Assembly: GCA_964016885.1 (NCBI GenBank)
Contig: OZ024751.1
Span: 11,842,001 to 11,906,000 of the forward strand
Length of the DNA stretch: 64,000 nt
DNA from: Eledone cirrhosa
Taxonomy: Eukaryota
Reading direction: 5' to 3'
In this document: positions 28,519 to 64,000 of the stretch, in pieces
How positions within the stretch are numbered: the stretch's first letter is position 1
Layout: the number at the start of each line of letters is the position of its first letter
The notes under the pieces: generated by a model
What the model was told of the DNA's origin: nothing
The model's input: the letters and a program-made list of their open reading frames with translations, nothing else
Databases searched by the model: none
Translations under genes and position numbers: made by a program

Positions 28519-28821
28519 TCAACTAGAAATTGATTGGCATATATATATCTAAAATAAACACATGAAGCAATCACAGGGGATAATTTGTAAAGTGTGTAAG
28601 CACACACAGCTAGGTAGGTAACTATTTAAAGTTTAACTAGAACTTCAAATATAGATACATTTTTAAATGATTAATCTTTTTAAAAGGTATCTATATTTGA
28701 AGTTCTAGTTAAACTTTAATTAGTTATCTACCTAGCTGTGTGTGCTTACACACTTTACAAATTATCTCCTGTGATTGTTTCATATGTTTATTTTATATAT
28801 ATAAGTCAATCAATTTCTAGT

Positions 28822-29399: not shown

Positions 29400-29908
29400 A
29401 GACTTAGGTCGTAGAATTTTTTTCTTTACATTTATTCCCTTTTTCAGTCTCAGTATTTTTTTTTTTTTCTTTCATATATATATTTTTACCCTTCTTTGTT
29501 CTACTTACCGTTTCGACTCCCTCCCCCTCCCCCTCCCTAGTATCTTCTTTGACCTCATGCCCAGCTGTAGCCGGCACAACCAACGCATGATTGGGTCTAC
29601 TCCACCCCCTCCCCTTTTTCTCCTACTGGCAGTGGCTAAACCAGCCACCCTCTCCCCCACCAATTTGCCACCACAGAATTACTACTAACTTGTGACCAAT
29701 CCTTTGACCATATATGGAATTACCCCTTGAGCAGCTCAGCTATTTAAATACCAGGATATATTTTCATTTAGTCCAGAATTAGCCGTCGAAACGGCTTGAG
29801 CTCAGCCGTCGGGGTCTTACTGGTTCCTATTACCCACTCAACTACCCTAAGTATTGAGTACTTTGGTGCGTTATGGTCCACCTGATTCCTTACCACATTT
29901 CCTTCGTT
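29400..29908 (+). mobile_element. Family D: solo 3' UTR/pLTR of a Naiad-type PLE ending in (TA)n
   Basis: Homologous to the reverse complement of 36893-37350; terminus taccctaagtattgagtactttggtgcgttatggtcca...ccttcgtt. Confidence 0.8.
29722..29815 (+). ncRNA. Variant HHR, family D (core UUGAGCA in this copy), long stem II
   Basis: ACCCC-TTGAGCA-G..(long)..C-GAAAC-GGC-TTGAGCTCA-GCC-GT-C-GGGGT. Confidence 0.6.
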
Positions 29909-36892: not shown

Positions 36893-38543
36893 AACAAAGG
36901 AATTGTGGTGAGGAACCAGATGGACCATAACGCACCAGAGTACTCAATACTTAGGGTAGTAGAGTGGGAAATAGGAAAAAGTAAGACCCCCGACGGCAGA
37001 GCTCAAGCGGTTTTGACGCCTATTTCTGGACTAGAATTTTTAGCCTGGTGAATAACTAGCCGAACTTGTCAAGGGGGTACTTCCTTATATGGGAAGATTG
37101 TAGTTGTCAAGAGGATTGGTTAAAATTTGTTGTAAACAGAAATAAGTCTATCATGGCATTTGGTGGTAGGTAGGGGTGGCTGAACTTGCCTGTAGAACAA
37201 TAGGGTGTGAGTGGAGCGGTCAAGCGTTGAAAGTGATATGTATACAGTAGATTCTAAGGATAGTGTATGAAGTGGGGGAGGGAGGTTATAGAAAAGGGAA
37301 ATCGAATGAGAGTAGGAGACAATAAAAGATGATAGGAAAAAAAAATATATATATAGTGAGAAATGAATAAAAAATCACAATGCTATCTTACAATTACAGG
37401 TTAATAAGTTGAGAATAGAAAAAACTTGTAGAAATTGAGTAGTACCAGAACTGATACAAAAATTAAAGGGGTTTAACAAGTCTGCTATAAGTAGTTAGTA
37501 AAACGTATTCGGCCAATTCAATATTAAAATTACAGGGGTGGGGGAATTGATGCTACAGAGGCCCGATGGGCTGCATCGGGGTAGGCGAAAGGGGAAAAGC
37601 AGACGAGGAAGAAAATAGGGGGTGGAAGGAAGTGATAGGATGAGACAGGGGGGAAGAAGACAAAGAGGAAAAGAAAAGAAAAGAGATACATCTACCTAAG
37701 TAAGCTGGGGTTTCGGCAAGTGGGGGGGGGGGGGGGTATCATCCCTTGTCTACCCACCCGGGTCGTTATGGGGTTTGAGGGCGAGGTAAGTTCTACGCAA
37801 TCTGTGTTTGCATGCGGTTACCAGTTCGTCTTTCTTGTTTAGGAGTTGGTCCTCCGAAAACAGTATTTTTAATGTTTCCTCCAACCATAAGTTACACGGA
37901 CGGCGCCCTCCCGTGTAAGAGTTAGCTCTGGACAGTAAGCTCCAAGTGAAATTGTAGGTTATATTATTATCTTGGAGGTCCCAGATGTGGCCCGAAAGTG
38001 TAGTGGCATGTCGCCGGACAGGGTTTCGGAAAGTATGTCGGTGTTGGTAGAGCCGGGTCTTGAAATCACAAGCGGTTAATCCTATATAAGCTTTGTTGGA
38101 GGTGTCCGTCCTCACGTTGCACTGGTAGATCACGTTACGTTCTCGGCATTTGTTGTTGAGGGGGCACGTAGATCTATCAGGACAATTACACCTCCTGGTC
38201 GACTCTCCACTGATGTCTAGGTTATTTCTTCCATACCGGTTGAGTTTTTTGTTGTTTGAGGAGACGATGTTTTGTGCGAAGTTAGGTGTGGTGCTGTAGG
38301 AGAGTTTGATGGTGTTTTTGTTGATTATGTTGTGGTAGCGTGTTGTAGTGGGAAGTGTTTTTAGAGGAGTCTAAAGAAGATTTTCCCGATAGGTGTTGCC
38401 ACCTCGGCATTATGGGGAGGATTGAAACACGTAACGTTGCGTGAGCGGTGGTGTCGCCTGCTGGTTCAGCGGTTCAGCTAAGGGAAGCTGGATAAAAGGA
38501 TATTTCCTCCCGGAAGCCACTCCGTGTGTGTGTGTGTGTGTGT

Positions 38544-38636
<93 letters not shown>

Positions 38637-39122
38637 TGAGAGAGAGAGCGAAGGGGCCTGGTTGTAATGAGGCGCGTGTTCATCGAATATCTGCTCTCTA
38701 GCGGATACACGAGATATGCGGAGGGAGATGTTTTAAACCAGGTTATTGGTGATGTTTCTAGGATGGTTAGAGCGGCGGTGGATGTAGGGCAGATTGTCGT
38801 TTGGTTTCCTGTATGGGTAGTACAGATCATTTTCGAGGTTAAGAGTAACGTCCAGGAAATTGACTCGGGTTAGGGACGTTTGTAGGGTGATTTTAAATCG
38901 CCAGTCCCGGAAGAAGTTGATTAGTTGTTTAGGGATCCGGTCTGTACTACTAGGGTTGTACCCTTTGAGGGTGAGGAGCCCATCATCCCGGTACAATCCA
39001 CCACTGAATGCAGGAAACATTTCGGTGAGTTTAAATAGTAGGAATAATCCTATAAGATCTGTGACCACGGCCGAATCCGTCGCGCCCATACTGACAGTAG
39101 TACAGACCGGGTCCGTAAACAA
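36893..39122 (-). mobile_element. 5'-truncated Penelope-like element (Naiad-type): RT + CxC-x4-C-x5-C linker + GIY-YIG + long 3' UTR; interrupted by a (CA)n run at 38525-38648
   Basis: MGATDSAVVTDLIGL, GGLYRDDGL, VNFLDVTLNL, YPYRKPN...YIH..SNHP; CNCPDRSTCPLNNKC; IYQC..AYIGLT..FKTR..QH...F...CNL.LEE..LLNKKDEL..CKH. Confidence 0.92.
36986..37078 (-). ncRNA. Variant HHR, family D (core UUGACAA; GAAAC->AAAAC), at the Naiad 3' end
   Basis: Reverse complement: ACCCCC-TTGACAA-G..C-AAAAC-CGC..GCC-GT-C-GGGGGT. Confidence 0.6.
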
Positions 39123-39534: not shown

Positions 39535-39890
39535 CTTAACGCCTGACCGGCTTGGTACCCACTGGTCAGACAGTCACCTTACTCCCTCAACTTTGTTCTA
39601 CAGGACAGTTCACCCCCACACCACCCCGCTATGAAGTAATTTAACCATGTACTTGGCATCCCAAAATCATTGACCACTCTCCCCTGACAGACAAGAAAAA
39701 CAACAGATTTTTAGGATTGTTTGATTTGGTATTTCTGATTTTGTTTTGTTTTGACTGCATAACCATATTTGGACTGTACCCCTTCAAAAATTGAGCTAGT
39801 TTCCCGCCGTCCTAATACTGTTGACTTTGTTCGGATCTAGCTGTCGAAACGGCCAGAGCTCAGCTGTCGGGGTCATGGCACATTTCCTAT
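39535..39890 (+). mobile_element. Inverted, diverged family D 3' region upstream of the truncated Naiad; HHR variant at 39778-39873
   Basis: ACCCC-TTCAAAA-..GCTAG..CTAGC..C-GAAAC-GGC..GCT-GT-C-GGGGT; ttgttctacagg..agttca shared with the reverse complement of ~37180-37200. Confidence 0.6.
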
Positions 39891-41097: not shown

Positions 41098-42268
41098 GTT
41101 AAAACTTGGACGGGAACAAAAACAGAGAGGCAGTACAAATGAGAGTTTATTAGGTTCACTCTTTTGAAAGTGGGGGGTGGGGATGACGTTTCGAGCATAA
41201 GCACTTCATCAGGAGAAAAGTAGGTAGGAAGAGTGACCTGTTGGTAAAACTCACCCGAGAAGGAGAAGCAGTTGAGGGCGAGGACCAGCTCGGCGAGACG
41301 AAGTTGGGTGGGGTGGATGGGCGAAGGTTGAGATATTGCCGGAGGGCACATAGGTTGTCAGCGTGGGGGATGACAGTATAGAGGGACTTGATATCTAGGG
41401 TGAAGAGGAGGAGTGTGGGCCGGGTGAGAAAGTGAGGGAGTCGAACAGGCAAACGGCGTGGTTGGTGTCGGAGATGTGAGAGGGGAGGGTGGGGACGAGG
41501 GGGGAGAGGATGGAGTCAAGACAGGCGGAGATGAGTTCGGTGGGGCAGTTGCAATCGTAAACGATGGGGCGGTCGGGGTTGTCGGGTTTGGGGGGTTTGG
41601 GGAGGAAGTAGATAGGGGTGTGCGGGGGCTGCGGGGGCTGCGGGGGCTGCGGACGATGAGGTAGGAAGCGTTGGAAGAGAGGAGGGAGGAGGAGACAAGG
41701 TGTTAGATGGGGGAGGAAACTTGTTGTTGGTAGAGGGGTGTGGGCTTGGAGGGTAGAGGGCGATAGAAGAGGGGTTACGGAACTGCCTGAGGTCTTCGGC
41801 CGTGTAGAGGTCAGCGCGCCACACCACCACGGCGCCTCCTTTGTCCGCCGGTTTGATGACGATGTCATCTCGGTTACGGAGGGAGTGGAGAGCGAGGAGT
41901 TCGCCCCGTGAGATGTTATTCCGTTTGGAACGATGGCGGAAGTCGAAGTGATTTACTGCGCTACGGCAAGCGTCGACGAACGCATCCAGGGTGCTAAGTT
42001 GCCCTTGTGCCGGCGTCCAAGACGATAGTCGGCGGCCCAGGGCAAGAAACGGTTCTGGCGCGTTTGGAGCCGGTGGGGTTTGATGAAAATATGCCTGTAG
42101 CTTCGTGCGTCGCACGAATCGCTCGACTTCCGTTCGGGTGCGGAACTCGTCGCTGTGCGGAATGTGGGGTATGAAGCGAAAGTCTCTACTGAGGAGAGAG
42201 CGCTCAGGTGGGGAGAGAGAGTGGTCAGGGGTGATGGTGACAACAAGAGCGGCGTGGGTGTGGGTGTG
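41098..42268 (-). mobile_element. Internally deleted Neptune-type PLE: N-terminal region and RT start fused directly to the 3' pLTR, in (TA)n
   Basis: IVIKPADKGGAVVVW, YFLPK..KPDNP.RPIV..C.CPTELIS, FTLDIKSLYTVIPH, LRLAELVL..N.FSF.GEFYQQV; 3' end matches 16415-16465. Confidence 0.92.
41180..41217 (-). ncRNA. Minimal HHR core in the Neptune pLTR (stem I not evident)
   Basis: Reverse complement: CTGATGA-AGTGCTTATGCTC-GAAAC-GT-C. Confidence 0.6.
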
Positions 42269-42486: not shown

Positions 42487-42782
42487 AGGGACAGAGACCG
42501 CTGGAGAGAACTCGTCCATGGATCTCGGGAATTTTACCCGCCTTAGATAGATAGATATACATATATATATACACACACACACATATATACACACACACAT
42601 GCACACACACAGACACACATATATATATATTTATATATATGTATATATGTATATATATATATGTGTGCATGTGTGTGTGTACATATGTGTGTGTGTGTAT
42701 ATATATATGTATATCTATCTATCTAAGGCGGGTAAAATTCCCGAGATCCATGGACGAGTTCTCTCCAGCGGTCTCTGTCCCT
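42487..42782. repeat. Perfect inverted duplication around a TA/CA microsatellite
   Basis: agggacagagaccgctggagagaactcgtccatggatctcgggaattttacccgccttagat and its reverse complement. Confidence 0.92.
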
Positions 42783-42902
42783 TATATATATATATATATA
42801 TAATGTGTGTGTGCGCGTGTGTGTATATATATGTGTGTGTGTGTATATATTTATATATATATGTAGGTATATATATGTGTATATTTATATATATATATAT
42901 GT

Positions 42903-44798: not shown

Positions 44799-44828
<30 letters not shown>

Positions 44829-44833
<5 letters not shown>

Positions 44834-45020
44834 AACCAGTAAGACCCCGACGGCTGAGCTCAAGCCGTTTCGACGGCTAATTCTGCAGAATTAGCCGTCG
44901 AAACGGCTTGAGCTCAGCCGTCGGGGTCTTACTGGTTCCTATTACCCACTCTACTACCCTAAGTATTGAGTACTTTGGTGCGTTATGGTCCACCTGGTTC
45001 CTTACCACATTTCCTTCGTT
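44829..45020 (+). mobile_element. Family D terminus with a spacer-less perfect palindrome (44829-44942), in (TA)n
   Basis: Centre ...ggctaattctg|cagaattagcc...; right arm continues to ccttcgtt. Confidence 0.9.
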
Positions 45021-45021
45021 A

Positions 45022-49824: not shown

Positions 49825-50144
49825 ATACGATATTAACAAATGGAAACTATATTTATAAAACCATATTTATTTCATTATACATATTTCAAGTTAAATTATG
49901 GTGTGCTTTCATCAGATAAAATATAATATAGAGCAGTTTTATAAATAAATATTGACATACCCTTAAAGATTGCAACCATTACTGTTGCATTCTTTAAGGG
50001 TATGTCAATATTTATTTATAAAACTGCTCTATATTATATTTTATCTGATGAAAGCACACCATAATTTAACTTGGTGTCCTTGAAATATGTATAATGAAAT
50101 AAATATGGTGTTATAAATATAGTTTCCATTTGTTAATATCGTAT
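49825..50144. repeat. Family A fold-back palindrome (~150-bp arms)
   Basis: Centre ttgcaac-cattact-gttgcat; the left arm has a 9-nt deletion in HHR stem II. Confidence 0.92.
50037..50101 (+). ncRNA. Type I hammerhead ribozyme, family A subfamily, intact core
   Basis: TATTTTAT-CTGATGA-AAGCACACCA..TGGTGTCCTT-GAAA-TATGTAT-A-ATGAAATA. Confidence 0.75.
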
Positions 50145-50683: not shown

Positions 50684-50779
50684 ACCCCGACGGCAGAGAT
50701 CAAGCCGTTTCGACGGCTATTTCTGAACTAAATTAGAATTTTTAGCGTGGTAAATAAATAGCTGAACTTTTCAAGGGGT
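50684..50779 (-). ncRNA. Variant HHR, family D, complete U3-A8 core and long stem II
   Basis: Reverse complement: ACCCC-TTGAAAA-GTTCAGCTATTT..AAATAGCCGTC-GAAAC-GGC-TTGATCTCT-GCC-GT-C-GGGGT. Confidence 0.7.
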
Positions 50780-51034
50780 AATTCCCACTCTGTTACCCAC
50801 TCCACTACCCTAAGTATTGAGTACTCTGGTGCGTTATGGTCTATCTGGTTCTTTACCACACCTGCTTTGCTATATATATATATATATCGACTTTCGTCAA
50901 ATCGGCCCGAGGAAACAATGTCGCAACTCCAGGTAGAAGTAACAACGTGAAATAAAGTATCTAGCTCAAATCGAACTCACAACCTCACCATTGCGAATCC
51001 AGTTCTCTAACCACTCGGCCACGCAAATATACTC

Positions 51035-52744: not shown

Positions 52745-54285
52745 GGGGGGGGGAGTTAGTGATGGTTGCGATAGGGGTGTTGTTCTTAGTGGGGGTGTTG
52801 ATGGTGAGGGTTTTGGTGGTGGTCGTGATTGTGGTGTTGTTGTTAGTCGGGGTGGTGGAGGGGATAGTGTTGGTCGTGATGGAGGGGGTGGTTGTTGTTA
52901 GTGAGGGTGGTGGTGATGATGGTGATGGTTTTTGGTGGTGGTCGTGATAGTGGTCGTGTTGTTAGTGGGGGTGGTGGAGGGGATAGTGATGGTCGTGATG
53001 AGGGGTGTTGTTGTTTGTGAGGGTGGTGGTCGTGATTGTGGTGTTGTTGTTAGTCGGGGTGGTGGAGGGGGTCGTGATGGAGGTGTGTTGTTAGTGAGGG
53101 TGGTGGTGGTGGTCGTGATTGTGGTGTTGTTGTTAGTGGAGGTATAGTGATGGTCGTGATGGGGGAGGGGGGTGTTGTTTTTAGTGAGGGTGGTGGTGGT
53201 GGTGTTGATGGTGAGAGTTTCGGTGGTGGTCGTGATTGTGGTGTTGTTGTTAGTGGGATGGTGGGGGGTATAGTGATGGTCGTGATGGGGGGGGGTTGTT
53301 AGTGAGGGTGTTGATGGTGAGGGTTTTGGTGGTGGTCGTGATTGTGTTGTTGTTAGTGGGGGTGGTGGAGGGGGATAGTGATAGTCGTGATGGGGGGGTG
53401 GTAAGTGGTGGTGGTGGAGTTGATAGTGAGGGTTTTGGTGGTGGTCGTGATTGTGTTGTTGTTAGTGGGGGGTGGTGGAGGGGATAGTGATAGTCGTGAT
53501 GGGAGGGGGGTAGTGGTGGTGTTGATAGTGAGGGTTTTGGTGGTGGTCGTGATTGTGTTGTTAGTAGGGGTGGTGGAGGGGATAGTGATAGTCGTGATGG
53601 GAGGGGGGGTAGTGGTGGTGTTGATAGTGAGGGTTTTGGTGGTGGTCGTGATTGTGGTGTTGTTGTTAGTGGGGGTGGTGGAGTGGATATTGACGGTCGT
53701 GATGGAGGGGTGTTGTTGTTAGTGAGGGTGGTGGTGGTGGTGTTGATGGTGAGGGTTTCGGCGGCGGTCGTGATTGTGGTGTTGTTAGTGGGGGTGGTGG
53801 AGGGGATAGTGATGGTCGTGATGGGGGGAGGGGGGTTAGTGGGAGCGGTGGTGATGGGGGAGGGATAATAGTGATGGCAGTGGTGATGGTGATAGTGATG
53901 CTCGTGGTGGGGGTTGTTATTAGTGGGGGCGGTGTTGATGGTGGGGCATTGGTGATGGCAGTAGTGATGGTGATAGTGATGGTGTTGATAGGGTGTTAGC
54001 AGTGAGACTGGTGGTTGTGAAGTAGTGGCGATAGTCGTGGTGGTGTTAGTAGTAATGGTGGCGGTGTAGTTCATGGTGATAGTGGTGACACTCGTGATGT
54101 TAGTGTTGTTGGTTGTAAGAGTGTAGGTGGGAGTACATGTCTTTGTTATGCTGATAGTGATGATGGTGGAGGTTAGTAGTAAGGGTGGGGGTGTTTGGAG
54201 TTGTCAAATTCATGGAGTTGTTGGTCATGATTATGATGGGTGTGCTGTTAATAGTGGGGGCGGGCATGGCGACGGAGTAGTTCAT
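52745..54285. repeat. G/T-rich degenerate minisatellite (~75-90-bp unit)
   Basis: Recurring ggtggtggtcgtgattgtggtgttgttgttagtgggggtggtggaggggatagtga. Confidence 0.9.
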
Positions 54286-54288
54286 TCT

Positions 54289-64000
<9,712 letters not shown>

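Follow-up and report, generated by a model that had tools for sequence, protein, structure and literature searches.

The window, by which we mean the whole 64,000-nucleotide stretch of Eledone cirrhosa DNA analyzed here, carries several copies of a hammerhead-type motif together with the remains of the Penelope-like element (PLE) to whose 3′ end the motif belongs (Table 1). A sequence-only reading had placed four copies (29722+, 36986−, 39778+ and 50684−), and we recovered all of them at those places and on those strands, with the first core boxes listed for them, with GUC ahead of the stem I 3′ strand in all four, with GAAAC kept in three of the four, and with stem II closed by a G-C pair in three of the four. 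The estimate of about 55 nt for stem II was also borne out (56 nt in the 50684 copy). Stem III had been given as GGC/GCC, which we found in two of the four copies but not in those at 39778 (GGC/GCU) and 36986 (CGC/GCC), and the proposed single family stood insofar as the copies share a hammerhead-type motif but not beyond that, as they fall in four different subfamilies.

Table 1. Hammerhead copies, their parts and associated features in the window
Feature	Position	Strand	Basis
Type I hammerhead motif, subfamily A1, core UUGAAAA	50684..50779	-	Sequence, descriptor match
Stem I 5′ strand ACCCC	50775..50779	-	Sequence; unchanged in 10 subfamilies
First core box U3-U4-G5-A6-A7-A8-A9 (U3 = 50774, A8 = 50769)	50768..50774	-	Sequence
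Stem II domain, 56 nt (G10.1-C11.1, mismatch and bulge, 9-bp helix, internal loop, apical hairpin)	50712..50767	-	Fold prediction and covariation
Second core box GAAA (G12-A13-A14-A15.1)	50708..50711	-	Sequence
Stem III CGGC/GCCG with 9-nt loop	50691..50707	-	Fold prediction, subfamily alignment
U16.1-C17, then stem I 3′ strand	50684..50690	-	Inferred from hammerhead consensus
Tail of the element (~80 nt; +17 to +103 from the predicted cut) in inverted orientation, with (TA)n at its end	50790..50876	+	
Hammerhead copy, subfamily A2, UUGACAA, G12 mutated	36987..37078	-	Sequence, subfamily tree
Broken 5′-truncated Hydra-clade PLE ORF	37750..39095	-	RT C-terminal part, CxCX5C linker, C-terminal GIY-YIG
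Hammerhead copy near youngest subfamily B, box mutated to UUGAGCA	29722..29815	+	
Hammerhead copy, old subfamily C (majority UUGAUAA), decayed to UUCAAAA	39778..39873	+	
Fold-back pair of half hammerheads (halves within 44828-44942)	44828..45021	.	
3′ half of motif, 5′-truncated in stem II	18700..18755	-	
Tail of element	22837-22935		

The 50684 copy has the complete core attributed to it, with a predicted cut between 50689 and 50688, but its sequence marks it as a decayed, dead stub. It differs from the A1 subfamily majority at three positions (50763, 50726 and 50699), of which the first creates an A·C mismatch in stem II and the last breaks the loop-3 palindrome, GAGCUC in the family. The motif in this stub begins a few bases ahead of stem I and is fused to the inverted tail, which identifies the insertion as a ~210-bp 5′-truncated inverted stub without an ORF. 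It is a poor candidate for an assay, for which intact B and A1 copies are better suited. A relaxed descriptor (YUGANRA box) gave two matches in the window, one of them the 50684 copy; the other, at 50040-50117 (+), is an AT-rich CUGAUGA...GAAA arrangement with weak stems and is probably a chance match.

Among the other copies, the one at 36986 lies 672 nt downstream of the ORF stop, with its tail reaching 36893, and the one at 29722 is preceded by a 3′ UTR from 29249 and followed by a tail to 29913. The broken ORF is interrupted by frameshifts and a CA microsatellite, and its three longer segments are 86–90% identical to an intact genomic ORF. In the fold-back pair the junction falls inside stem II at about 44885/44886, and the tail is on the + arm.

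The window also holds a separate broken PLE reverse transcriptase (RT) fragment at 41260-42240 (−), upstream of but unrelated to the Hydra copy, whose DKG motif makes it neither Hydra nor Naiad by that motif; an RT remnant, likely from a PLE, at 15114-16350 (+), with a weak RVT_1 match (E 0.0014) and a YIDD motif; long inverted repeats at 42490-42790 and 28591-28754, one with a microsatellite center, which are possibly MITE-like or fold-back insertions; and, at 54000-64000, a microsatellite-like array that extends over ten kb and is strongly skewed (GC 7–16%, GC skew >0.8).

The host element

Translated, the frames that precede the 36986 copy give the last part of an RT and then a GIY-YIG endonuclease. 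A genome search with that protein returned 150 scored matches, many of which share a score and have open frames of 784 codons; we read two such frames intact at locus L091. There the predicted cut falls after L091:1765 and the ATG is at 1956, so that 190 nt separate the cut from the next unit's start codon. At G000:C1:437.2 Mb five motifs of the youngest subfamily are spaced 3,531 nt apart, with one motif per unit and intact 784-codon frames, and a second head-to-tail array of five units, also of the youngest subfamily, lies at G000:C1:91473243-91487433 with a period of about 3,542 nt. Of the subfamily-assigned copies with enough flank, 84 showed the ORF end upstream on the same strand, at a median distance of 0.6–1.1 kb by subfamily.

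The element protein (717 aa, single ORF) contains RWR at 37, DKT at 117, YRDD at 348, CxCX5C at 572, VIY at 591, YIG at 606, CxxC at 670 and CxH at 698, so that the GIY-YIG domain is C-terminal; one Cys lies between VIY and YIG, and CCHH is absent. The element also inserts at (TA)n and carries a 3′ hammerhead. By these protein motifs, which are those that Craig et al. (2021) give for Hydra elements, and by its insertion features it is a Hydra-clade PLE. An ORF end upstream of the motif on the same strand upholds the tie to the 3′ end of a PLE that the sequence-only reading had drawn, but the Naiad label that went with it was wrong: the N-terminal endonuclease, DKA and CCHH that mark Naiads are all missing from this element. 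A six-frame scan of the window found no DKA-type RT motif, and Pfam gave no match for the element proteins. We found 2,049 protein homologs, mostly unnamed, the top matches being about 40% identical.

Abundance and predicted fold of the motif

A whole-motif pattern that left the first core box free gave at least 5,169 exact matches in the 3.0 Gb genome, compared with none for the reversed control; the motif is thus not a product of chance. Fold predictions arranged three helices round the core with stem I open, as in a type I hammerhead. Stem III has four further pairs beyond A15.1-U16.1 and a 9-nt loop, stem II spans 54–56 nt, and the younger subfamilies have a predicted distal stem I (GGAA/UUCC) that includes an internal loop. 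The stable stem III and long stem II rule out a minimal PLE hammerhead (min-HHR). When folded without constraints, the youngest subfamily has the hammerhead as its minimum-energy structure, but in subfamily D a competing hairpin (AGCCG/CGGCU around GAAA) is favored by 3.5 kcal/mol, and in subfamily F the hammerhead fold costs 3.5 kcal/mol. Folding z-scores were unremarkable for the four sequences tried (−1.53, −0.13, −0.90 and −1.66).

As had been anticipated, standard models miss the motif: Rfam returned no match at E ≤ 10 for an intact copy (L091:1600-1900), and for the window no hammerhead was among the 150 of 534 matches listed, which microsatellite matches dominated. Two further short elements accompany the motif, namely CCAUAUA(U/A)GG just 5′ of stem I (e.g., 29708-29717 (+)), which is common to all ten subfamilies, and UUAGU in the 3′ side of stem II, which is invariant.

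The core pair 3-8 across ten subfamilies

Among the first 100 genomic copies by position, scored by eye, positions 3 and 8 were U3-A8 in 81, C3·A8 in 14, U3·G8 in one, C3-G8 in none and something else in four. A narrow genome-wide pattern gave 3,466 U3-A8, 492 C3·A8, 49 U3·G8 and 9 C3-G8 copies, and a wider one 5,729 U3-A8, 1,780 C3·A8 and 17 C3-G8. The proposed consensus UUGANAA is therefore the majority core genome-wide, but other core states exist alongside it.

Decay does not account for these states, which are the majorities of their subfamilies. When the first box was allowed to vary, so that subfamily membership was fixed by sites outside it, the first 100 of 755 subfamily D copies comprised (by eye) 93 C3·A8, 6 U3-A8, 1 G3·A8 and no C3-G8, which rules out C3·A8 as the result of post-insertion decay, and 17 of 22 subfamily F copies (by eye) had U3·G8, which rules out an artefact of how they were fetched. 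In the oldest background, again box-free and by eye, the 11 copies comprised 4 C3-G8, 5 U3·G8, 1 U3-A8 and 1 C3·A8; 22 old copies fetched by their UTR comprised 16 U3·G8, 2 C3-G8, 2 U3-A8 and 2 others. Because the samples came from several biased queries, these group sizes are not abundances. A Watson-Crick 3-8 pair is present in the 50684 copy and in the 5,729 U3-A8 matches, and absent from the 1,780 C3·A8 matches and from most copies of the U3·G8 subfamilies.

The ten subfamilies line up in a chain that leads from C′ (C-G) through G (U·G), C (U-A), F (U·G), A1 and A2 (U-A), and E and D (C·A) to B (U-A). We ordered it with trees of upstream UTR plus motif from which the box was removed (70 of 179 eligible rows, after six misplaced rows were dropped and the rest subsampled, and a second tree of 47 rows) and with a tree of ORF ends (33 of 84 rows). 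In the UTR tree, B falls within the C·A copies, a placement that has starred support; the ORF-end tree gives the same order from F onward, with one older row and the order of A2 and E undecided. End branches lengthen from B (near 0) to C′/G (about 0.06–0.17), and these lengths, together with the C-G state of other Hydra elements, are why C′ is taken to be the oldest; the polarity was set without an outgroup sequence and is not a formal rooting. From oldest to youngest, we infer that the pair passed through C-G, U·G, U-A, U·G, U-A, C·A and U-A. The clean compensatory swap from C3-G8 to U3-A8 envisaged in the sequence-only reading does not fit this series, as positions 3 and 8 changed singly and unpaired and wobble states were amplified.

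Along the chain, with the order set from the trees and 298 of 323 copies classified (25 were left out), the ten subfamily majorities showed no change at the ten fixed core sites (U4, G5, A6, A9, G12, A13, A14, A15.1-U16.1 and H17), none at ten stem I sites and one at eight stem III sites, compared with 43 changes over 33 sites of the apical stem II and 18 over 11 sites of the flank, so that the apical stem II and the 3′ flank took 1.3–1.6 changes per site. Position 7 changed four times, as expected for N7, and positions 3 and 8 changed three times each, always staying pyrimidine-purine. Stem II covaried, with double-sided swaps at three pairs (G-C/A-U, U-A/G-C and U-A/A-U); stems I and III were conserved, without double-sided changes. 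In this count subfamily E is represented by a rare C3-G8 copy (L143), so that the score of the 3-8 pair comes out too high, and the rows are related, so that the shuffle counts are not probabilities. Together, the pattern of constraint and the predicted folds point to a real type I hammerhead fold under apparent purifying selection, and cleavage by the motif is likely.

Insertion ends, cleavage and meaning

In 240 copies the (TA)n began +10 to +26 past the predicted cut in 122, +85 to +107 in 86, and +0 to +9 in one; in a set of 227, copies ended at +17 in 69 and at +97 in 56. The C3·A8 copies share these two end classes (17 and 17 of 37). At each of the two sites the element continues with TAT, which provides microhomology with the (TA)n target. 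Ends beyond the predicted cut imply a template that runs across the site, either a religated circle or uncut RNA. Fold-back junctions recur inside stem II, at 44828-45021 in the window and at L013, L023, L055, L063, L071 and L100, and partial matches start mostly apical or 3′ in stem II, which suggests that the structure stalls or redirects reverse transcription. In all eight inverted pairs that were read (L178-L184 and L186) the tail is on one arm only and the other arm stops near +17; this constant asymmetry may stem from the priming of first and second strands.

On balance we favor, with some reserve, a reading in which the motif marks the unit boundary of a recently amplified Hydra-clade PLE and likely cuts read-through RNA after GUC, probably slowly. 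Cuts at two successive motifs would release unit-length RNA; either this RNA would be closed into a circle by religation, or some of the RNA would escape cutting. The element endonuclease would nick (TA)n, and the RT, after priming at +17 or +97, would copy back over the cut site, yielding more-than-unit and tandem copies. A religated circle would also explain the five-unit arrays. The 3-8 pair would meanwhile drift one base at a time among C-G, U·G, U-A and C·A with the rest of the core fixed, a drift that, we propose, would be tolerated because modest cleavage activity would suffice. The cut-and-circularize model is that of Cervera and De la Pena (2014, PMC4209133), who also report poor in vitro cleavage by metazoan PLE hammerheads.

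An uncut template accounts equally well for insertion ends past the cut. In the main alternative, the fold might be kept mainly as a structure recognized by the element's own RT and endonuclease, or as a 3′-end or promoter signal, with cleavage weak or dispensable and the template uncut. We regard this as unlikely, although several observations fit it: mismatch and wobble cores spread with unchanged insertion anatomy, a single copy of 240 ends near the predicted cut while the priming sites flank the motif, and Naiads, as described by Craig et al. (2021, PMC8557442), spread without hammerheads. The C3·A8 state in particular, at 1,780 copies with unchanged ends, counts against cleavage, because a 3-8 mismatch should cripple a hammerhead; in published mutagenesis of another hammerhead, activity of single mutants in the 3-8 region was low and the G3-C8 swap alone rescued it. 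The competing hairpin in subfamily D, the cost of the hammerhead fold in F, the ordinary folding energies and the poor in vitro cleavage of metazoan PLE hammerheads also weigh against the favored reading. At the least, a C·A mismatch that reached so many copies indicates that strict 3-8 pairing is not needed for spread. What speaks for slow but real cleavage is where the constraint falls: the catalytic U4, G5, A6, A9, G12-A14 and C17 are invariant, N7 is free, and positions 3 and 8 stay pyrimidine and purine, a pattern of catalysis that a protein-binding site need not copy.

A further possibility, which we consider improbable, is that cleavage occurs only in a dimer in which two motifs pair through the palindromic loop 3 (GAGCUC), which would limit processing to tandem transcripts. 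None of the ten subfamily majorities departs from GAGCUC, and a palindromic loop 3 is a PLE hallmark thought to pair minimal PLE hammerheads (Cervera and De la Pena, 2014). The stem III duplex is also predicted at −26 to −28 kcal/mol compared with −10 to −13 for two hairpins, in a model without concentration terms, but stem III with its four further pairs forms in the monomer prediction, and adjacent motifs are 3.5 kb apart. Least probable by far is A-to-I editing of A8 that restores a C3-I8 pair in the C3·A8 subfamilies: inosine pairs with C, and inverted insertions would produce long double-stranded RNA, but edited templates would copy as G8, which occurs in none of the first 100 subfamily D copies, the 17 C3-G8 copies against 1,780 C3·A8 are in line with ordinary mutation, and U3·G8 would be left unexplained.

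The U3-A8 core, on which the sequence-only reading centered, had already been published, PLEs included. It occurs in about 1,300 PLE hammerheads of Schistosoma (Cervera and De la Pena, 2014), and natural covariation from C3-G8 to U3-A8 was described by Perreault et al. (2011, PMC3088659). Like our element, the Cercyon element of Schistosoma mansoni has U3-A8 in the terminal repeat of a PLE, dispersed copies in the thousands, G10.1-C11.1 and a palindromic loop 3, but its motifs have no real helix III and a helix II of 7–8 bp, and the text consulted describes no C3·A8 or U3·G8 families (Cervera and De la Pena, 2014). The variants of Perreault et al. (2011) share the covariation but are rare and unrelated sequences, mismatched repeats having been filtered as cryptic mutants, and the parts of that paper drawn on here contain no single lineage with amplified intermediate states.

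Our element resembles the Hydra-clade elements of Craig et al. (2021) in element class, type I topology and 3′ position of the hammerhead, in (TA)n targets, in inverted and tandem insertions, and in a tail at one end. In their File S2 all 26 Hydra rows combine CUGANGA with a short stem II and with a loop 3 no longer than 3 nt, whereas our element has a stem II of 54–56 nt, a 9-nt stem III loop and mostly U3-A8; its unit of 3.5 kb and 3′ UTR of 0.6–1.1 kb are also unlike those of the Hydra elements described there. Two spike-moss PLE-X rows of File S2 do have a long stem II (Craig et al., 2021). Six of eight metagenome relatives carried a hammerhead in the corresponding position, in three distinct motifs with CUGANGA, short stems and a loop 3 that likewise does not exceed 3 nt. 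Naiads, which share with our element the PLE class, (TA)n targeting and inverted 5′-truncated copies, differ in their N-terminal endonuclease, DKA, CCHH and, as described, lack of canonical hammerheads (Craig et al., 2021).

A literature search, mostly of papers open without subscription, returned no report of hammerheads with mismatch or wobble cores, none of a covarying 54–56-nt stem II with a stable stem III in a Hydra element, and none of the history of a 3-8 pair in such an element. What is new here is a structural variant of the motif in a known kind of element; the amplified wobble and mismatch cores within one lineage are the part most worth pursuing.

Tentatively, and with more doubt than we attach to the slow-cleavage reading, the catalytic pair may have walked stepwise through wobble and mismatch within one retrotransposon lineage, each state serving as a transposing master. 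If so, there are two options: U·G and C·A cores may be able to cleave thanks to the long stem II, an outcome not foreseen from laboratory mutagenesis of other hammerheads, or the element may be selected for slow cleavage. The natural series would then reveal the amount of self-cleavage that a Penelope-like element requires. Craig et al. (2021) describe it as an open question whether hammerheads are of use to the PLEs that carry them or are simply passengers. The family offers natural, divergence-dated variants of one putative ribozyme at its catalytic pair, with copy number as the record of their success and with young intact tandem arrays that suit a reporter assay, and it would be a rare natural record of compensatory change passing through unpaired intermediates.
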